DNA from: Patescibacteria group bacterium
GTDB taxonomy: Bacteria > Patescibacteriota > Patescibacteriia > SBBC01 > CAIJZX01
Assembly: GCA_038065275.1 (NCBI GenBank)
Contig: JBBTRH010000006.1
Location: forward strand, 1-49,340
Length of the DNA stretch: 49,340 bases
Reading direction: 5' to 3'
Shown: one piece after another, positions 14,913-39,983 of the stretch
Layout of the letters: each line of letters opens with the position of its first letter
Numbering within the stretch: position 1 is the stretch's first letter
Notes under the pieces: model-generated
Told to the model about the DNA's origin: nothing
The model's database searches: none
Seen by the model: the letters and a program-made list of their open reading frames with translations, nothing else
Made by a program: the position numbers and the translations under genes

Positions 14913-15467
14913 ATGCCCAAGATTCCCTACGATCCGAATTACCTTTGTTTTATCACGACCGTCACGCACAAGCGACGGCCGATATTTCGCGATCAAAAAT
15001 TAGCGGAACGGTTGGGGACGATGATTATGATGGCTTGTCGGTTGAAAGGATTCGTGCCGTTGGTGTACGCGATTTTGCCGGATCATTTACACCTTCTGGT
15101 TTGCTCTCAGCACCTGTTACTACGCACACTCGAAAGTGTGCGTAGTAACAACCAAACCTCTGGCGAGGCAGGAGGCGGACTTTTCCCGCCGTTAGCAGGA
15201 CCCCGCTTGTCGGCGGTGGCCAGTCTGCCTGCGCCACAAGTCGGTGCCCTAGTAAAATCCATTAAAGGTACGTTTTCGCGGACACTGCCGCACGGAACTG
15301 TTTGGAAGCGACGGTATCATTGTTGGATGATTATTGATGGGCGCGATGCGGCTCGCGTGGTTAAATACATCACTTACAATTACCGACACTCCGGTGTGCT
15401 AGAACGGTACGGCCGGGAACCATACGTTTGGTGCGATGATGGGATGATCGAACAGATCTTGTCGTGA
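14913..15467 (+). mobile_element. REP-associated tyrosine (Y1/HUH, IS200-like) transposase RAYT-1
   Basis: FITTVTHKRRPIF, AILPDHLHLL (HUH), KSIKG, WKRRYH, catalytic-like YITYN; contains an internal REP-like palindrome at 15120-15145. Confidence 0.85.
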
Positions 15468-30843: not shown

Positions 30844-31959
30844 TCACTCTTGAGCCGGGGCGACGCTGATGGATATGCGTTCCGGCTGATCGGGCGCGGT
30901 CGTCCGCCACCACGGCGCCAGTTTAACGGTGGCCGATTTCACCAGCGATGATCCCAGGAGTTTCGACTTGATGTCCGCGGCGGATAAACCGGTATACGCG
31001 GCGGCCGTGAGCAGAGGATTGGTCGTTGACAGCGTGGCCAATCCCCGGCCGGCCACTTCCAGGACCACGCGGTCGCTTGATGGTCGATCCTGGACGGTCA
31101 GTGACGGCGGGGTGAGACTGGCGACGTCTTGTCCGTCGCTTAAAGTCCGGCGCAGTTCCTGCCGCAGGAGGTCGTTCAACCGGTCAGCCGGATAGGTCAC
31201 GGTCGTGACGGCGGCGGTCACGGTGACGGTATACGAAGCACTCGGCACGGCGGGTTTTGGATCGGAGACGACGGCGACCGGTTTGAGCGTCACGAAGATG
31301 CCGGGCTGGCTACCGCCGACGACGTCGCGAATTTGCTGTTCGGCCTGGTTGCTGGCCGCAGTCAGTTCATCAAGCGACAACATCGATCCGCCGCTAGCCA
31401 TCCCGCCGCTCAGTGGTTGCGCGGTCTGGCCGTAAATTTTGTCCTGGAGTCCAGGCCACAGCGCGACAATAACGAATCGGCCGGCCGGCAAATTTCCTTC
31501 ATTTCCTAGCGGATCAGCCACGACCGGCGCGTCGATTGATCCGTTGGCGGGGACGTCGACCCGGGCCGTGGTACGGACAATGACGCCATTTTCAGCTCGC
31601 AGGCGTGTCCCAACGGCCAGCGGCTGGGATTTAGCGGTGATGTTGCGGAAAGTCATGGCTCCGGTCGCGTGGGCGGGAACCGATGGGCCGGCCGGCGGCG
31701 GTTGAACCGTCACGGCCGCCGATCGTTCCGCCGTATTGACCGTGCCGACCAGCTGGTTCGAGTCGGCGGCGGAGATGGTTGGTCCAACCGCCACCGGGAA
31801 AGTGGCGGTGACGGGTTTCAGCAACGGAGTGATGCTGATGACGGTCGACGACCAGCCGGCGTAGGCGGCGCCGGCCGCGATGAGGAGGACAAGCGCGACG
31901 AAAACGATGCTCAATGGTCGGTAGACACGCTGGACATGGGCCTGCCGGAGGTCGGTCAT
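30844..31959 (-). CDS. Membrane-anchored baseplate J/gp47-like domain protein (CPR-type)
   Basis: N-terminal TM; ATGxxTFxN...QPLxxGTR...ADxxGxEGN pattern; overlaps the dnaE stop. Confidence 0.65.
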   Translation of the reverse strand: MTDLRQAHVQRVYRPLSIVFVALVLLIAAGAAYAGWSSTVISITPLLKPVTATFPVAVGPTISAADSNQLVGTVNTAERSAAVTVQPPPAGPSVPAHATGAMTFRNITAKSQPLAVGTRLRAENGVIVRTTARVDVPANGSIDAPVVADPLGNEGNLPAGRFVIVALWPGLQDKIYGQTAQPLSGGMASGGSMLSLDELTAASNQAEQQIRDVVGGSQPGIFVTLKPVAVVSDPKPAVPSASYTVTVTAAVTTVTYPADRLNDLLRQELRRTLSDGQDVASLTPPSLTVQDRPSSDRVVLEVAGRGLATLSTTNPLLTAAAYTGLSAADIKSKLLGSSLVKSATVKLAPWWRTTAPDQPERISISVAPAQE

Positions 31960-34900
31960 GGCGTTTCCACGATACAGTCACCGAGCAGATCCTGCAAGGC
32001 GCGCCGCAAATCATCGGTCATGGCTACCCGATGCTCGGTCGGCAGGAACTTTTCTTGCGATCCGCGGGTGACCAGCAGTTCCACCGGCAGGTCGCCGCCC
32101 GACCGCGCCAACAGCGACTTCAAGGCCGCGAACACGGCCGGCGAAGCGGTTTCCAGCGGCAAGCGGAGGAGCAACCGCCGCGGCGCCGGCGTCGCGTCCC
32201 GCAGTTGGACGAGATCCCATACCCGGTCGACCAGGATTTTAAATTCACCGTCGCGCGCCGAACTTTTGCCCTCGATGACGACCAGTCGCCCGTCGGTCCA
32301 GAACGGTTGCGTCTGACGGTAAATGGAAGGGAAGACCACCGCTTCGACGGTGCCGGTCTGGTCTTCAAGTTTGACGAAAGCCATGCTCTCGTTCGCCCGC
32401 GTGCTGATCCGTTTGACGTTGGTCACCAAGCCGCCGACTTTGAATGACCCGCGACCGGCGTCCCGGACGTCAGTGATCGACTTGGCGGTGCGACGGAGCC
32501 AATCGCGGTGCTCGGAGAGCGGGTGATCGCTGAGGTAGAGGCCGAGCAGTTCTTTTTCCCATTGGCCGCGTTGGGCCTTCGAGGCGGGGATCGCGGCCTT
32601 GAGTTTTAAGGCCGGCGCGTGGCGGACCGGCAGGGAGGCGAACAGGCTGGACTGGCGCTTGGTCGCTTCGTCGTCGGCGCCCTTGGCGTATTTGAGCAGG
32701 TCCTCGACGTTCTCCCGCAGGGCCTGTCGTTCGCCGAACGCATCGAGAGCCCCGACTTTAATCAAGCTCTCGAGCGATTTCTTGTTCAGGTCTTTATGCT
32801 GGACGCGGCGGAGAACGTCGTCGAGGCTGGCAAACAGACCGCCCGCCTGCCGCTCAGCCATGATCGCTGACACCAAGTGGTCGCCGACGTTCTTGACCGC
32901 GTTCAGCCCGAACCGGATGCGCTTCGGTTGGCCGGACGCATCGTCAACGACGGTGAATGAAGCCGCGCTCTCGTTGAGGTCCGGCGGTAACACCTGGAGT
33001 CCCATTCGCCGCGCGTCATCGATCTCAATGGCGATGCGGTCGGTGTTGTGCTGGTCCGACGTCAGCAACGCGGCCATAAACTCGGCCGGGTAATTGGCTT
33101 TGCAGTAGGCCGTCTGATAGGCGATCACCGCGTAACAGGCGGCATGGGAGCGGTTGAATCCGTAGCGGGCGAACGGTTCGATGAAATCGAAGATCTTCTC
33201 CGCCACATTTTTTTTGGTGCCGCTATGCACCGCCCCGACGATAAACTTGTCGCGCTGTTCTCGCAATAGCTTGGTGATTTTTTTGCCGACCGCTTTCCGC
33301 AACACGTCGGCTTCCCCGAGCGTAAAACCGGCGATATCGCGAGCCAGCTGCATGACCTGTTCTTGGTAGACCGCCACGCCGTACGTCGGCCGGAGAATCG
33401 GTTCAAGTCGCGGGTCAAGGTAGGTCGGTTTCACTTTCCCGTGCTTGCCGGCGATAAACTGAGGGATCAGCTCCATTGGACCCGGGCGGTACAGCGCCAC
33501 CATGGCGATGATGTCTTCGAGGGACGTCGGCTTCAATTCGCGGAGATAGCGGCGCATGCCCCCGGACTCCAGCTGGAAGACGCCGGTCGTTTCCCCGCGT
33601 TGCAGTAGCTGGAAGGTGGCCGGGTCGTCGTAGGCAGAGGCATCGAGGTCAAGATCAATTCCGCGCGTCTTCTTGACTAACCGAATGCAGGTTTCCAAAG
33701 TGGTCAGGTTCGACAGGCCCAGGAAGTCTATTTTCAGCAACCCCAAATCCTCGATCGGATGAAGCGAGTATTGGGTGATGATCGATTTGTCGTCCGGTCC
33801 GGCGTACTGCAAGGGCACGTAATGATCGAGCGGTTCCTTGGTGATGATCACGCCGCAAGCGTGCCGCGAAGCATGTCGGGCCACCCCCTCCAGTTTTTTA
33901 GCGCCGTCCAATAGCCGCTTCGCTTCCGGATCATTCTGGTAGATGTCCTTGAGTTCGGCCACCTCGGCCATGGCTTTATCGAGCGTGGCGAACATGGGAA
34001 TCAACTTGGCCACGCGGTCGCAGTAGGCGTAGGGAAGTCCGAGCACCCGCCCCACGTCCCGAATTGCGGCCCGGGCGGCCATGGTGCCGAATGTAATAAT
34101 TTGCGATACATGGTCTGACCCGTAACGTTGCTCGACGTAGCGTAAGACCTCGTCGCGCCGGACATCGGCGAAGTCGATGTCAAAATCGGGCATGGCGATG
34201 CGTTCGGGGTTGAGAAACCGCTCAAAGAGCAGGTCGTACTTCAGGGGGTCGACGTTGGTGATATTGAGGAGGTAAGAAGTGATCGACCCGGCGGCTGAAC
34301 CCCGACCCGGGCCGACGACGATCCCTTGATTTTTCGCCCAGTTGACGAAGTCTTGAACAATCAGGAAAAAAGAAGCGAAACCGGTCTTGGCGATGACGCT
34401 CAGTTCGTACGCTAGCCGTTCCTGAATGACGGCGGTGGCCCGACCATAGCGTCCGGCGATACCGGCTTCAGCCAAGCGGCGGAGCTCGTCCATCGGGGCG
34501 GCCCCGCTCGGCACGTCATAATGGGGGAGCTGAACACGGCCGAGCTCGATCGTGACGTTACACCGGGCGGCCAGGCTGACGGTGTTGGCTAGGGCGGCCG
34601 GGGTAGCGGCGAAAATAGCGGCCATCTCCACCGCGGATTTTAAGGACAAATCGTCAGCCGCCATCGACATCCGGTCGGGGTCACTGAGTTGTTTCTTCAA
34701 GTGAATGCACAACAAAATGTCCTGCGCTTCCGCGTCTTCCGGTCGCAGGTAGTGGCTGTCGGCGGTCGCGACTAAGGGCGCATTGGTGGCGGCGCTGAGG
34801 CTTTTTAGCGCGGCATTGACCTGTTCCTGTTGCGGCCGGGAGGGGTGGTGCTGGAGTTCGAGGTAGAAATTGTCGCGGCCGAAGATGTCCTGGTATGTTT

Positions 34901-35381
34901 GAATCAGCCGTTCCGCGCCGGCCAAGTCATCGTTGAGAATGGCGGCCGGAATTTCACCTTTCAGGCAAGCGCTGAGCGCGATCAATCCGCGCGAGTACTG
35001 ACGCAGGAGGTCGTGGTCAATGCGCGGACGGTAGTAAAATCCCTCGAGGTGGGCGATGGTCACCAACTTGATCAGGTTCTGGTACCCTTCGTTCGAAGCC
35101 GCCAACAAGACCAGGTGATAGTTTTTTTCGTCGATCTTGGCGCGTTTGTGACGGTGCCCTTCGGGCGCGACGTAGGTCTCGACGCCGATGATCGGTTTGA
35201 TGCCGGCTTTCTGGCAGGCTTGATAAAACTCAATTGCCCCGTACAGCGCGCCGTGGTCAGTCAGGGCGAGGGCCGTTGCGCCCTGGGCTTTGGCGGCCGA
35301 CACTAACTCGTCGATCTTGGGCAGACCGTCGAGCAGGGAATAGTGGCTATGGACGTGGAGATTGACGAAGTCTTTTGGCAT
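31956..35381 (-). CDS. dnaE: DNA polymerase III alpha subunit
   Basis: LHVHSHYSLLDG, TDHG, GPGRGSAAGS, FERFLNPER..MPDFDIDF, LLKIDFLGL, YGFNRSH. Confidence 0.97.
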   Translation of the reverse strand: MPKDFVNLHVHSHYSLLDGLPKIDELVSAAKAQGATALALTDHGALYGAIEFYQACQKAGIKPIIGVETYVAPEGHRHKRAKIDEKNYHLVLLAASNEGYQNLIKLVTIAHLEGFYYRPRIDHDLLRQYSRGLIALSACLKGEIPAAILNDDLAGAERLIQTYQDIFGRDNFYLELQHHPSRPQQEQVNAALKSLSAATNAPLVATADSHYLRPEDAEAQDILLCIHLKKQLSDPDRMSMAADDLSLKSAVEMAAIFAATPAALANTVSLAARCNVTIELGRVQLPHYDVPSGAAPMDELRRLAEAGIAGRYGRATAVIQERLAYELSVIAKTGFASFFLIVQDFVNWAKNQGIVVGPGRGSAAGSITSYLLNITNVDPLKYDLLFERFLNPERIAMPDFDIDFADVRRDEVLRYVEQRYGSDHVSQIITFGTMAARAAIRDVGRVLGLPYAYCDRVAKLIPMFATLDKAMAEVAELKDIYQNDPEAKRLLDGAKKLEGVARHASRHACGVIITKEPLDHYVPLQYAGPDDKSIITQYSLHPIEDLGLLKIDFLGLSNLTTLETCIRLVKKTRGIDLDLDASAYDDPATFQLLQRGETTGVFQLESGGMRRYLRELKPTSLEDIIAMVALYRPGPMELIPQFIAGKHGKVKPTYLDPRLEPILRPTYGVAVYQEQVMQLARDIAGFTLGEADVLRKAVGKKITKLLREQRDKFIVGAVHSGTKKNVAEKIFDFIEPFARYGFNRSHAACYAVIAYQTAYCKANYPAEFMAALLTSDQHNTDRIAIEIDDARRMGLQVLPPDLNESAASFTVVDDASGQPKRIRFGLNAVKNVGDHLVSAIMAERQAGGLFASLDDVLRRVQHKDLNKKSLESLIKVGALDAFGERQALRENVEDLLKYAKGADDEATKRQSSLFASLPVRHAPALKLKAAIPASKAQRGQWEKELLGLYLSDHPLSEHRDWLRRTAKSITDVRDAGRGSFKVGGLVTNVKRISTRANESMAFVKLEDQTGTVEAVVFPSIYRQTQPFWTDGRLVVIEGKSSARDGEFKILVDRVWDLVQLRDATPAPRRLLLRLPLETASPAVFAALKSLLARSGGDLPVELLVTRGSQEKFLPTEHRVAMTDDLRRALQDLLGDCIVETP

Positions 35382-35518: not shown

Positions 35519-35830
35519 CTAGAGGTCGTCCTCGTCGGCTGATGCTCGTTTGCTGGACTTGGCGCGCTTCTGGCGCCGATTATTAATGAAGGACATCAGT
35601 TGCTTCAGCCCGTCGACCAGGAGCGACAGCTGGACGTGCGTCGAGGTCAGTTTTTCGCGGATGGTGTGGAGGATTTCATCGATGGTGTTCAGCCGATCGC
35701 GGAAGTCGCTGACCAGCCCCTCAATTGACTTGAAGATGCGGATAATGTACCACAATAACCAGACCCAGAAGACGGTCGCCACCACCGCGGCTACCGCCAG
35801 CGAGACGTAGAGGATGTCGCGAGTAAGCAT
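35519..35830 (-). CDS. Small TM plus coiled-coil protein (DUF948-like)
   Basis: MLTRDILYVSLAVAAV...WLLWYII then heptad repeats; TATACT 6 nt before the ATG at 35830. Confidence 0.75.
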   Translation of the reverse strand: MLTRDILYVSLAVAAVVATVFWVWLLWYIIRIFKSIEGLVSDFRDRLNTIDEILHTIREKLTSTHVQLSLLVDGLKQLMSFINNRRQKRAKSSKRASADEDDL

Positions 35831-35849
35831 GGGGAAAGTATAGCAGGGC

Positions 35850-35878
35850 TTGACTATTTGAGGAAGGTATGCTATTGT
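35850..35878 (+). promoter_or_regulatory. Promoter of the DGR target gene
   Basis: TTGACT-17 nt-(TGc)TATTGT; the leader contains a 50-nt hairpin at 35911-35960. Confidence 0.6.
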
Positions 35879-36030
35879 GGTTCGTTCTTTGATAACCTTA
35901 GCGGACAACTGGCCGTAGCGCCTAGATCGGGCTTAAAAGCCTTATTTGAGCGCTACGGCTACCACTAGCCAAAGCTCGTTCGTTCGGGACGACCTACCCG
36001 GATATGCTTTCCCAAGAGGAGGATGACGAC

Positions 36031-36636
36031 ATGGCAACGTCCATGACCCCATCCGCAATGACCGATGGCCAGATCGAGCGCGCCATCGAGATCTTCCGCG
36101 CCCAGCTTCGCAAGCACGCCAACGAGCTTCCCTCGGACGCCGTCCAGCAGGTGTTCGGCCAGCCCGAACTCGGACCCGAGTGGCTCGCGGTGCTCCGCAA
36201 GCGCGTCGACGCGATCAGCGACATGATCGTGCGCCGCGTCACCGTCAACCGCAACCGCACTCCGCAGGACATGCTCGACGCCACCGGTCGGAATCAGCAC
36301 ACCGACAAGGGCGTCGTCAAGGCCATGCCCCGTGGAACCGGTGACGAGGTCGAAGTCGTCTTCTTCAAGGTCGGTCGCTACCTCAGCGACGCCGATCTCG
36401 AGAAGGAGTACGATCTGCGCAGTCTCAAGCCCGCCGACCTGTTCTCGCTGGGGAGCGTCAACGAGGCCGATCCGGCCTTCGCCGACGATCACCCGAACGG
36501 GACGCACTGGCAGGATGCCAACGGCAAGTGGTGCTACGCGGCGTTCGGCCGGTGGGGCGGCGAGCGGGACGTGGACGTCGACCGCCGCGGCGACGACTGG
36601 GGCGGCGGCTGGTGGTTCGCCGGCGTCCGCAAGTAG
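36031..36636 (+). CDS. DGR target (variable) protein, probable C-type-lectin-like fold, no signal peptide
   Basis: C-terminus YAAFGRWGGERDVDVDRRGDDWGGGWWFAGVRK is the VR; SD GAGGAGG before the ATG at 36031. Confidence 0.88.
   Translation: MATSMTPSAMTDGQIERAIEIFRAQLRKHANELPSDAVQQVFGQPELGPEWLAVLRKRVDAISDMIVRRVTVNRNRTPQDMLDATGRNQHTDKGVVKAMPRGTGDEVEVVFFKVGRYLSDADLEKEYDLRSLKPADLFSLGSVNEADPAFADDHPNGTHWQDANGKWCYAAFGRWGGERDVDVDRRGDDWGGGWWFAGVRK
36535..36632 (+). repeat. DGR variable repeat (VR)
   Basis: 98-nt ungapped match to 37071-37168 with 19 mismatches, all opposite TR adenines. Confidence 0.95.
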
Positions 36637-36660
36637 TCTGACCTTTTTCCCTTGGGCGCT

Positions 36661-36737
36661 GTGAGCTTGATCGCTCACTTTGTCCCTTGGTCGACGCTCC
36701 GCGAGAGCTTGTCTCACGCGGAGCGTTTTCTTTTTTT
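36661..36737 (+). terminator. Post-VR hairpin (GTGAGC-ttgatc-GCTCAC) plus GC-rich terminator
   Basis: 6-bp stem at 36661-36678; acgctccgcg/cgcggagcgt stem at 36694-36726 followed by T-rich sequence. Confidence 0.7.
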
Positions 36738-36762
36738 ACAAGCTTTTTGCTATACTCCTTTG

Positions 36763-37205
36763 TGGATAGTAGACGATTCAGCTCGCGGTCAAGGCTTCGA
36801 GCGGTCGAATTCTAGGGCGATGGTGTTGTCGGAATATTCGTGATCAAGGTCACGAATAGTGTACATGCCACGCCGCTTAAGCAAGTGAAGATACTTGGTG
36901 CAACGTACTGGAGGAGAACCTGAGTCTAACGACTGGGCAAGTGCTCCCGAATAAAATACAGCCCGGAGAGTCCCGACATTCCGCCCGGCGGAAGTCGGGA
37001 TCCCGACCATCATCTTGGATGAGGCATCGGGATATTCAATGGGCAGTGGTACGGATGGTGCGCTGTACATAACGCGACGTTCAACCGGTGGAACGACGAG
37101 CGGAACGTGAACGTCAACCGCAACGACAACGACTGGAACGACAACTGGTGGTTCGCCGGCGTCCGCAATTCTCTTCACGCTCTCCCCTGGATTATTCCGG
37201 GGGAG
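36763..37205 (+). ncRNA. Putative DGR template RNA (structured 5' leader, TR, 3' hairpin)
   Basis: TGcTATACT at 36748-36756; no credible ORF; hairpins tattcgtga/tcacgaata and 36971-37032; ctcccctgga-ttat-tccgggggag at 37182-37205; boundaries inferred. Confidence 0.6.
37071..37168 (+). repeat. DGR template repeat (TR)
   Basis: Ten AAC codons in the VR frame; invariant 3' ctggtggttcgccggcgtccgcaa shared with the VR. Confidence 0.95.
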
Positions 37206-37302
37206 TTTAGTTTCTGGTACGATTCTGTCGGTACGAGAAATGAGATTTGCCAAATATCTGGTAATCGGTTACAGTGTTTTCGGTGGCAAAAGATGAGCCA
37301 CC

Positions 37303-37992
37303 ATGCGTTTACCCGCGCACCGGGAGGCCACCGACTCTGTCGGTGGAGGAAAGCCGGTGCGCACGGCCTCCGGTGCGGGGTTCCGCCCCGCCACGTACAG
37401 CGCTTCGCTTCTACGTGGCCCCGCCCGGTATCGAGTGGAGCCGCCAACTCCTGTTGGCGGGGCTCCACCAGGATACGATTATTCGCTACCAGGACGGTAT
37501 TTTGTCACCATCTGCACGAAATATCGGCAGGAGATTTTTGGTGTCGTGCAGGATGGACAGATACGGCTGAATGTTTTTGGCGAGGCAGTACGAAAATGCT
37601 GGTTTGATCTACCGAATCATTATTATTGTACCCTCGATGTGTTCGCGGTGATGCCAAATCATATTCATGGGATAATTGTTATTCCTGAATTGTTGCACCC
37701 GCCACACACCGCAGGCGGGGGTTTAAACCCCCGCCTGCGGGAGGCCGAGACGCAATCAGGCGTGGAAACAATGCATATTTATCCGTTAACAGAAATGATA
37801 CGCGGTTTCAAAACATTCTCCGCCGCCGCGGTCAACCGTCTCAAGGGTACGAGAGGAGCCCCGCTGTGGCAGACATCTTTCCACGAGCATGTTCTTCGGG
37901 GGACTTCCGATTTGGAGATGGTTCGTGAGTATATTCGTCTTAATCCAATCAATTGGTATCGAGACAGCAAGAATTCCCGGAGGGGAAGATAG
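37303..37992 (+). mobile_element. REP-associated tyrosine transposase RAYT-2 (5' end possibly disrupted)
   Basis: GYDYS..GRYFVTICT, VMPNHIHGII (HUH), IRGFKTFS, LWQTSFHEHVLR, YIRLNP; internal palindrome gcaggcggggg-tttaaa-cccccgcctgc at 37711-37738. Confidence 0.85.
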
Positions 37993-38039
37993 GGAGTTTT
38001 TTAGACAAAACCATTGTTTATTGCTAGTCTGTTAGCAGT

Positions 38040-38870: not shown

Positions 38871-39983
38871 ATGGCCACGCTCCGTTTTCGACAGTTGGGG
38901 CGGGGACTCGACCTCGGCCTGCTGACCGTCACCCTGCTGTTGACGGTCATTGGCCTGGGGGCGCTGTTCAGCACCTCACTGAATGCCGAACCGGCCGGCT
39001 TCTCGATCTTCTACCGCCAGCTGTCGTACGTCCTAATCGGACTGGGGGTGATTGTCTTTTTCACCCGGCTTGATTATCGCTACCTGGGAGGCATTCACTG
39101 GGTCTTGTACTTGGTCGGGATGGCCATGCTGATCGCGGTCCGGTTGTTCGGGCGGACGGTCAATGGCACGACGGGCTGGTTTGAAATCGCCGGTTTCCAG
39201 TTACAGCCGGTCGAATTCGTCAAGATCATCGTCGGCCTGGTGCTGGCCAAATACTTCGCCGACCACCTGAACGAGCTCCAATCATGGCGGGTGATATTTG
39301 TTACTGGCGCGCTGGTAGTCGGGCCGATCGTGCTAGTCATGCTCCAACCCGATCTCGGTTCAGCCATGCTCCTGTTCGGTATCTGGTTCGGTCTGTTAGT
39401 GGCCCTGCCCGTTCCCCGCCGCCGGGTCGGACTCCTGTTGCTGTTGACGGTGGTCGGAGCGGTGGCCAGCTGGTTCCTCATCCTTCAGCCGTATCAGAAA
39501 GAGCGGGTCCTTATTTTCATCTCGCCGAATCGCGACCGTCTCGGGTCGGGGTACAACGTTCAACAGGCGATCACGGCCATTGGCTCCGGCCAGATCTTCG
39601 GCCGCGGGCTTGGCCTCGGGCCGCAGTCACAACTGAATTTCCTTCCCGAACGACACACCGATTTCATCTTCGCGGCGATCAGCGAAGAGCTAGGATTCGT
39701 CGGAGCCGGCACCATCTTGCTTCTCTTCACCTTGCTCTTCTGGCGATTCTTCGGGTTGAGTCAACGGTGCCGAGATACGTTCAGCGCCGTCCTGACTATG
39801 GCCCTAGCCCTGATGTTCTTCGTCCAGGTGGCGATTAATATCGGCATGAATCTCGGCGTTTTCCCGGTCACCGGCATCCCGCTACCGTTTATCAGCTACG
39901 GCGGCAGTTCCCTCCTGTCGAGCTTGATGGCCATCGGCATCGCCGAGAGCATCGCCATCCGCCAGCGGATCATCCCGCTGTGA
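38871..39983 (+). CDS. rodA: SEDS-family peptidoglycan glycosyltransferase RodA
   Basis: QPVEFVK, QPDLGS, GYNVQQAITAIGSG, FLPERHTDFIF, TGIPLPFISYGGSS. Confidence 0.88.
   Translation: MATLRFRQLGRGLDLGLLTVTLLLTVIGLGALFSTSLNAEPAGFSIFYRQLSYVLIGLGVIVFFTRLDYRYLGGIHWVLYLVGMAMLIAVRLFGRTVNGTTGWFEIAGFQLQPVEFVKIIVGLVLAKYFADHLNELQSWRVIFVTGALVVGPIVLVMLQPDLGSAMLLFGIWFGLLVALPVPRRRVGLLLLLTVVGAVASWFLILQPYQKERVLIFISPNRDRLGSGYNVQQAITAIGSGQIFGRGLGLGPQSQLNFLPERHTDFIFAAISEELGFVGAGTILLLFTLLFWRFFGLSQRCRDTFSAVLTMALALMFFVQVAINIGMNLGVFPVTGIPLPFISYGGSSLLSSLMAIGIAESIAIRQRIIPL

Follow-up and report, generated by a model that had tools for sequence, protein, structure and literature searches.

A diversity-generating retroelement cassette without its reverse transcriptase, probably orphaned, in a Patescibacteria genome

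The cassette on contig C6

The stretch of DNA analysed here (the window, 49,340 nt) is the whole of contig C6 (JBBTRH010000006.1) of a Patescibacteria group bacterium. The host is an ultra-small groundwater bacterium, and its genome assembly (GCA_038065275.1) comprises 33 contigs, some of which contain runs of N, with a total of 1.09 Mb. Between 35850 and 37215 of the window lies a cassette of a diversity-generating retroelement (DGR): a target gene that ends in a variable region (VR), a structured leader RNA, a template repeat (TR) and a stem-loop. To judge from its homologues, a compact Patescibacteria DGR with the order target/VR, leader, TR, (avd), reverse transcriptase (RT) is represented here by the half that encodes no enzyme. 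Positions are those of the window and features are on the plus strand unless stated otherwise.

The target gene (36031-36636) is an open reading frame (ORF) of 201 aa with a helical N-terminal part and a putative lectin-like C-terminal domain that carries the VR. Translation most likely starts at ATG 36031; the sequence GAGGAGG stands 8 nt before this codon, and homologues begin at the aligned methionine. A consensus scan placed a putative promoter of the gene at 35850-35878 (TTGACT, 17 nt, TG-TATTGT), a position shared with a second cassette of the same genome, on contig C8. The 5' leader of the target mRNA holds a hairpin (35912-35959; inverted repeat with 23-nt arms) that also aligns with the C8 cassette. 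Two hairpins follow the VR (36661-36726), namely a short stem of 6 bp (36661-36678) and a hairpin of terminator type (36694-36726) that leads into a T-run, and they are flanked by CCCTTGG boxes common to C8 and to relatives.

The target protein matched no Pfam family. An AlphaFold model based on 15 homologues reached a pLDDT of 89.5, and Foldseek found no PDB match for it at E ≤ 0.001. When residues 64-201 were compared with 48,161 chains by VIA-align, the top rows were nearly all C-type-lectin-like, among them Mtd (1yu0; Z 5.2, rmsd 3.4, 105 aligned) and TvpA (2y3c; Z 5.0, rmsd 3.3, 119 aligned). As every Z was 6.2 or lower, the model is only suggestive of a C-type-lectin-like fold for the C-terminal domain.

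The VR/TR repeat pair

The VR (36535-36632) forms the last 32 codons of the target gene and aligns without gaps over 98 nt with the TR (37071-37168), which lies 536 nt away. The two copies differ at 19 positions, and all 19 are adenines in the TR (17 A>G, 1 A>T, 1 A>C). In the target frame, every difference falls on the first or the second codon position. Ten AAC codons lie in frame in the TR, and its adenines number 28. Before the invariant 3' block there are 26 adenines, 19 of which are changed in the VR; the 70 non-adenine template positions show no mismatch at all. With 28 adenines among 98 template positions, 19 random mismatches would all fall on adenines with a probability of about 4.6e-11. 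The gapless 98-nt alignment, the 19 mismatches, the 19 of 26 adenines and the ten AAC codons agree with a first-pass annotation of this DNA. The C6 TR has no match anywhere else in the genome.

The VR ends in a G+C-rich block (36609-36632) of 24 nt that is identical to 37145-37168 of the TR. It resembles an initiation of mutagenic homing (IMH) element, and its putative role in homing is taken from the Bordetella phage DGR (PMC3240598). We infer that the adenine-only differences are a record of mutagenic retrohoming by an RT-Avd pair of the kind found beside this cassette type in relatives, which we call the matching clade; clade here means a grouping of RTs by pairwise identities only.

The lack of non-adenine mismatches had also been read as a sign of recent activity. 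This argument proved weak, for such mismatches number 0-2 in RT-linked relatives, 2 in the RT-less C8 cassette and 1 in the intact DGR of contig C7. The adenine substitutions are not spread evenly over the three other bases. A>G dominates in all three VRs of the genome (17/19 in C6, 10/18 in C8 and 16/17 in C7), and the bias is family-wide among VR/TR pairs (for example 17/19, 16/21 and 15/21).

The template-RNA gene

The TR appears to be the 3' part of an RNA gene with its own signals. An extended -10 box (TGCTATACT, 36748-36756) may serve as its promoter, and a TATACT-like box stands at the same place in all eight aligned cassettes. The first-pass annotation had given the TR an extended -10 promoter of its own. 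The box is indeed conserved, but it sits about 315 nt upstream, at the start of the leader, and not directly at the TR. A structured leader RNA of about 310 nt follows (36763-37070; core 36893-37069) and abuts the 5' side of the TR. Past the TR stands a stem-loop of 10 pairs with a 4-nt loop and a T-rich tail (37182-37215), conserved in C8, in an RT-less cassette of a relative (G058:C22) and in RT-linked relatives. Hairpins after the VR and 3' of the TR had both been noted, and both were found. The post-TR stem-loop is probably a terminator, an Avd-binding stem-loop, or both; stem-loops immediately downstream of the TR are described as binding Avd (bioRxiv 10.1101/2023.10.23.563531).

The leader fold is supported by covariation. 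RNAalifold, applied to eight cassettes, predicted 49 pairs, and compensatory changes occur in 32 of these. Across 14 sequences of the 93-position leader core, 95.8% of cells are paired, and both sides change in 15 of the 22 pairs. Not one of 500 shuffles reached these pairing statistics, and sliding the partners by 1-3 columns lowered pairing to 32-53%. A covariance model of the 93-position core, R1, was built from a training set that included C6 and C8; it scored the C6 leader core at 79.2 bits (E 4.8e-16). These comparisons indicate that in this DGR family the template RNA has a gene of its own, whose leader of about 220-310 nt is conserved and covaries.

The leader matched no Rfam family. 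At gathering thresholds, an Rfam scan that took in the window, C8 and the C7 locus returned nothing except tRNAs and large-subunit rRNA, and a permissive scan of 35800-37400 gave just three rows at chance level. The idea of a tRNA-like element in the leader was dropped; ARAGORN found none. No description of a leader RNA of this type, or of cassettes from the candidate phyla radiation (CPR) that lack an RT but have a TR of their own, was found in a literature search that left supplements and Paul et al. (2017) outside.

The apical loop of leader helix P5 carries a palindromic repeat (GTCCCGAC ... GTCGGGATCCCGAC; 36971-37029), which is an insertion relative to 11 of the 14 aligned leaders and is common to C8 and to the same-genus genome G003. 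Further copies of the repeat lie at C12:76647-76686, C9:15012 and C9:16884, and similar short matches occur in several relatives.

Probable loss of the enzyme half

No RT was found in the window when the complete genome was searched in six frames with Pfam RVT_1 (E ≤ 10), the single match being at C7:43802-44467, and tblastn with four RT and Avd queries gave nothing in the window. The first-pass annotation, which reported no RT or avd here, was thus borne out for intact genes. A remnant of avd is present on the minus strand, antisense to the post-TR stem-loop: 37192-37215 retains about seven codons from its 3' end, read as R N stop T P P E stop, which compare with ...QLQNETPPE stop in G017 and ...QLQNETPSE stop in G016. 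Homology to RT-linked cassettes ends at about 37216, just past the stem-loop.

Beyond this point lie a G+C-rich dispersed repeat with hairpins like those of repetitive extragenic palindromes (REP) (37308-37470) and an IS200-like Y1 transposase gene of the REP-associated tyrosine transposase (RAYT) type (37468-37992; Pfam Y1_Tnp 26.7 bits against a cut-off of 23). The repeat stands upstream of the transposase gene, its translation matches at least seven other places in the genome, and its depth in metagenome contigs is 4-10 times that of its flanks. The transposase gene occupies the place that avd and RT hold in relatives. An earlier suggestion that avd-RT had been lost near the RAYT fits this arrangement, in that cassettes of relatives run on into (avd)-RT and the C6 cassette runs into a ~7-codon Avd stub, the dispersed repeat and the Y1 gene.

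The cassette, the repeat and the transposase gene together form an inserted block (35849-37999; borders approximate, from alignment with the empty site of G002). The comparison of the dnaE-rodA interval that had been proposed showed that the 2.15-kb block is missing from the same spacer in all three relatives with contiguous flanks (G001 and G002 of the same genus, G005 of another), where the dnaE-side and rodA-side flanks are 112-444 nt apart. We saw no target-site duplication at the borders. The thought that the cassette might be a retro-copy, the cDNA of a read-through transcript, was dropped because the inserted block holds the -35 box.

Pfam confirmed the neighbours named earlier as the gene for the alpha subunit of DNA polymerase III (dnaE, 31956-35381, minus strand), the FtsW/RodA gene (38871-39983) and the Y1 transposase gene. 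The supposed DUF948-like neighbour did not hold up, as the 129-aa ORF at 35519-35908 has no DUF948 match. A further Y1 transposase-like gene lies in the window at 14913-15455, and more are found on C2, C16 and C20.

Homologous cassettes in relatives

A panel of 100 related genomes was searched at the DNA level and then with proteins. Relatives contain the same cassette type: a small target gene with a VR, about 450-510 nt to the TR, the leader, the stem-loop, then avd on the opposite strand and then RT. In the six relatives first examined, the cassette homologues adjoin (avd)-RT. The matching-clade RTs are 57-76% identical among themselves, and G003 carries a complete DGR with an RT of this clade.

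R1 found 34 leader cores in 27 of the 100 relatives, and for 28 of these cores an RT stands on the same strand no more than about 0.7 kb away; RT-linked leaders score 36-96 bits. An exact IUPAC pattern of the leader caught 8 relatives against 27 by the covariance model, and for this reason pattern counts were not used for frequencies. Two of the six exceptions (G095:C24 and G019:C57) are contigs that end after avd. At G031:C80 avd is intact and the RT is in fragments with a large internal deletion, and G054:C80 holds a partial leader alone. At G023:C6 a tandem cassette duplication with 99.9% identity stands before one RT. The duplication (L094 1546-7767) measures 3,116 bp and spans target, VR, leader, TR and part of avd; all three differences between its copies sit at the extreme start of the repeat and none in the VR, and it may be an assembly artefact. 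The last exception, G058:C22, is an intact RT-less cassette in which 21 of 21 mismatches are at adenines and no avd or RT lies within 12 kb; the G058 genome has one matching RT on another contig. In C6, C8 and G058:C22 alike, the avd stub is antisense to the stem-loop, and all three cassettes end at the same point.

Homologues of the C6 target gave a second view. The 13 loci in genome contigs comprise eight full DGRs, four bare targets with at least 1.7 kb of downstream DNA and one locus that is too short. Among ten loci in metagenome contigs, six have a leader, two are bare, one is uninformative and one (L043) is decayed; both of the six with enough downstream DNA have avd and RT. At L043 the leader and TR are deleted and a 32-aa Avd fragment is kept. 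A further target homologue lies in G053 (contig C1; L038 and L064, about 442.8 kb and 696.7 kb). It has 50% identity, a VR-like end and no TR within 20 kb, and the only RT of this nearly closed genome lies about 250 kb from it, so that it may be a remote or a fossil target.

The VR in metagenome contigs

Variation was followed in assembled contigs of public metagenome runs (four runs from two studies, 2021 and 2025). Contigs that cover the C6 VR with zero differences were present in all four runs. In two runs of the second study, zero-difference contigs also bridge the end of the TR and the transposase side. One X4 contig (depth 2.1) joins 36531 to 37080.

Minor VR-like contigs show 12-15 differences over the VR and 44-47 flanking letters unlike the window. 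They were rejected as VR variants on account of these flanks and were taken to come from other strains or from paralogues or related elements. TR-like contigs with other 3' hairpins were assigned to DGRs of other organisms. The uniform VR allele speaks weakly against activity, as contigs drop rare variants.

Other DGR parts in the genome

The C8 contig carries a second RT-less cassette with the same layout, leader, stem-loop and 3' border (minus strand, L003 1737-3270). Its target has 202 aa, its VR lies at 2474-2605 and its TR at 1807-1938, and 18 of its 20 VR/TR mismatches are at adenines. Its avd stub reads N-K-T-P-P-E-stop. The cassette lies between a family-1 glycosidase gene and a PGA_cap gene, and no transposase gene stands beside it. 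The C8 and C6 targets gave no BLASTP match to each other. They come from different target lineages, both of which have relatives that are linked to an RT.

On contig C12 lies a wreck (L039 1323-2232; 72.9-73.8 kb of C12). It consists of about 60 nt of leader start (nhmmer E 0.003), a Y1 transposase gene on the other strand and a 64-aa C-terminal fragment of an RT. The fragment is 50-67% identical to the matching clade, with no gaps or stops, and intact RTs share 50-80% over the same stretch. Thus, an RT of the matching type was once present in this lineage and has been destroyed. The leader fragment comes directly 3' of a HIT-family-like gene, named by eye from an HxHxH-type motif, and no target gene stands before it. 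Elsewhere on C12 (L039 4850-5050), two tandem copies resembling the reverse complement of a tRNA 3' half lie beside the palindromic repeat and a tRNA-Val gene. They may be an integration scar.

These loci bear on whether the C6 cassette ever had an enzyme beside it. The unit from promoter to terminator could have moved to C6 without avd-RT, for instance with a Y1 element, and could always have depended on a shared RT that is now wrecked on C12. Such an origin would agree with an inserted block that has the target's -35 box at one border and a transposase gene at the other, with three RT-less cassettes that have the same 3' border, and with a C12 leader fragment that follows a HIT-family-like gene and no target. 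The avd stub, however, means that the DNA once ran on into avd. Moreover, the C6 and C8 targets are of different lineages that each have RT-linked relatives, no transposase gene lies beside the C8 or the G058:C22 cassette, and the borders lack a visible target-site duplication. We therefore regard a cassette that was never autonomous here as very unlikely.

The genome-wide search for an RT and Avd that had been called for brought up one distant RT-Avd pair, on C7, and the matching-clade fragment on C12. When the whole genome was searched by tblastn with two matching-clade RTs, just C7 and the 64-aa C12 fragment were hit. A matching-clade RT-Avd could nevertheless be present in the organism, or in part of its population, and be absent from the assembly. 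The assembly is of metagenome style, with 33 contigs and some runs of N. A complete matching-clade DGR exists within the genus (G003), and in G058 an RT-less cassette coexists with a matching RT on another contig. In Thiohalocapsa, long reads are reported to have shown variants with an intact RT at loci that seemed disrupted (PMC10907252). Set against this, the genome was scored 100% complete with 0.57% contamination, a score that counts marker genes only; the six-frame search gave one candidate even at E ≤ 10; tblastn added only the C12 fragment, which is itself a matching RT destroyed; and the RT-less junction recurs in the zero-difference contigs of two runs of the second study. On balance, a matching enzyme that escaped assembly seems improbable.

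C7 carries the sole intact DGR of the genome. It has an RT of 360 aa (RVT_1), a bAvd of 126 aa on the other strand, which is the only bAvd gene in the genome, a TR/VR pair of its own (VR at about 46344-46467 of C7) with 17 of 18 mismatches at adenines, and an AAA_5 ATPase as target. A gene pair of DUF6922 and AbiEii (type IV toxin-antitoxin-like) lies between its VR and TR (L002 9387-10258).

The C7 enzyme raises the possibility that the C6 cassette is non-autonomous and still active. The C6 and C8 template RNAs would then be used in trans by the C7 RT-Avd, so that one enzyme would serve three template/target pairs. Several observations agree with this. The template RNA of this cassette type is free-standing, with its own -10 box and a terminator-like stem-loop, and avd lies on the opposite strand. 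Therefore, even in RT-linked relatives the enzyme must find its template RNA in trans. C6 and C8 are intact and have the same 3' border, C6 has not acquired a single non-adenine mismatch, and the strong A>G bias is common to the VRs of C6, C7 and C8. Additionally, Bordetella avd, TR and brt are reported to function in trans from a plasmid (PMC5758913), and incomplete DGR loci of Thiohalocapsa are described as diversified in trans (PMC10907252).

The match between C7 and the two cassettes is poor, however. The C7 RT is 35-41% identical to matching-clade RTs, well below the internal 57-76% of that clade, and no more than 45% identical to any RT in the 100 relatives. The C7 Avd shares just 26-34% identity with the Avds beside this cassette type in relatives. 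No leader was detected at the C7 template by MAFFT, by nhmmer (no match at E ≤ 10) or by the unfiltered covariance model, with R1 scores of 5.6-7 bits for the C7 template against 76-79 bits for the C6 and C8 leaders. The C7 template also has no post-TR stem-loop comparable to that of C6. The A>G bias does not point to C7, as it occurs in RT-linked relatives too. The VR allele was identical in all four runs, and the published structure stresses RNA-specific contacts (bioRxiv 10.1101/2023.10.23.563531). Thus, the first-pass proposal that a distant RT serves the cassette in trans was right that such an RT-Avd exists, but the divergence of this RT, the missing leader and stem-loop and the uniform VR count against it. 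We consider service by C7 unlikely.

Discussion

In sum, the C6 locus holds the non-enzymatic half of a DGR whose relatives run on into (avd)-RT, and the assembly holds no intact RT of the matching clade. We believe that the cassette is probably orphaned, that it records past retrohoming and that its VR is now frozen, and we hold this view with modest confidence. It follows from the fact that the matching RT type is left only as the 64-aa fragment on C12: the C6 and C8 cassettes are most likely orphaned and their VRs static. In Bordetella, many essential contacts between the RNA and RT-Avd are described as confining mutagenesis to the cognate template (bioRxiv 10.1101/2023.10.23.563531).

Based on these data, we propose a model for the history of the C6 cassette. 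The segment has two transcription units, the first being the target gene of 201 aa, whose putative lectin-like domain at the C-terminus carries the VR, and the second a template-RNA gene made up of the extended -10 box, the ~310-nt leader, the 98-nt TR and the stem-loop with its T-run. While the element was active, the TR RNA would have been copied by an RT-Avd pair that misread adenines, and the cDNA would have taken the place of the VR as far as the invariant 3' block. The avd-RT half, with avd on the opposite strand and RT after it, would have been removed directly past the post-TR stem-loop. The dispersed repeat and the Y1 transposase gene now stand in place of avd-RT.

A number of observations weigh against an orphaned, frozen cassette. 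First, C6 and C8 each have everything between the target promoter and the post-TR stem-loop intact, with open ORFs. Their leaders score within the range of RT-linked leaders, although the training set of R1 favours C6 and C8, and C6 is free of mismatches at its 70 non-adenine template positions. Second, the shared 3' end of C6, C8 and G058:C22 is what selection for a working template RNA would give. Third, a TR that is kept while the RT is gone is rare elsewhere, being found in 1 of the 34 leader copies of relatives and in none of the 23 target-homologue loci. That this genome alone has two such cassettes hints at a joint cause, for example an enzyme that acts on both in trans, and an intact RT-Avd pair does exist on C7. 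Last, contigs drop rare variants, so that low-level variation of the VR would still be compatible with the uniform allele, and with 33 contigs a matching RT could sit in unassembled DNA or in a subpopulation. The intact orphans, their shared border, the rarity of such cassettes elsewhere and the presence of the C7 RT-Avd thus keep service in trans alive as an explanation, though a doubtful one. It would have one divergent RT-Avd serve three unrelated template RNAs, two of them (C6 and C8) free-standing genes with a leader and stem-loop unlike its own, and, once a transposase insertion had destroyed the matching RT, two hypervariable lectin-fold proteins be kept on a borrowed enzyme. We give this combination a low probability.

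DGRs of this layout were known already, as were incomplete loci and action in trans (PMC10907252). What we add is a full decay series in one genome, with transposase genes at two of three break points, and two orphan template RNAs that are naturally paired with one foreign enzyme. The series runs from full elements in relatives through two intact cassettes without an enzyme and one RT wreck to bare targets elsewhere, and Y1 (RAYT-type) transposase genes and palindromic repeats are found at break points. If the cassettes are orphaned, they give one more view of DGR decay in streamlined Patescibacteria. If they still work, they would be a natural experiment on the specificity of DGR RTs for template RNA, which bears on tools for programmable mutagenesis. 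Should C7 indeed serve them, DGR RT-Avd would be far less template-specific than the Bordetella model implies, and template-RNA genes would be swappable between enzymes.

Comparison with known systems

The closest known systems are the CPR/Patescibacteria DGRs of architecture B3, TR-(avd)-RT, which is given for 90% of the CPR collection in Wu et al. (2018; PMC5758913); DGR clade 2 is described as restricted to Patescibacteria (Roux et al., 2021, PMC8144416). Like B3 DGRs, the C6 cassette has one small target with a C-terminal VR, a downstream TR and adenine-specific mismatches (PMC5758913), and its relatives have a reverse-strand avd and then RT. It differs from them in having lost avd and RT save for the 7-codon stub. 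It differs also in the structured leader of about 220-310 nt before the TR, for which neither Rfam nor the literature, within the search bounds given above, offered a counterpart.

Thiohalocapsa PB-PSB1 (Dore et al., 2024, PMC10907252) likewise has several DGR loci per genome, and in some of these the RT is disrupted or missing, which raises there too the question of service by another locus. Service in trans is inferred there from remote VRs that match the TR of another locus, whereas in our genome each RT-less cassette has a distinct TR. Metagenome variation is reported at most Thiohalocapsa loci; none was seen here in contigs. Remote DGR targets, such as those of Treponema (PMC5758913), resemble C6 in that the VR lies far from the RT of the genome. 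They use the TR beside that RT, unlike the C6 cassette, which has its own TR with no other match in the genome.

The Bordetella phage BPP-1 (mtd-avd-TR-brt; PMC6182149, bioRxiv 10.1101/2023.10.23.563531) shares with C6 the adenine mutagenesis from TR to VR, the unchanging block at the 3' end, a hairpin behind the VR and, immediately downstream of the TR, a stem-loop. Gene order and strand differ, and the enzyme is absent from the C6 locus. The two systems also differ in where the RNA extends beyond the repeat, for the phage has a spacer (Sp) 3' of its TR, whereas the C6 cassette has a large structured RNA on the 5' side.

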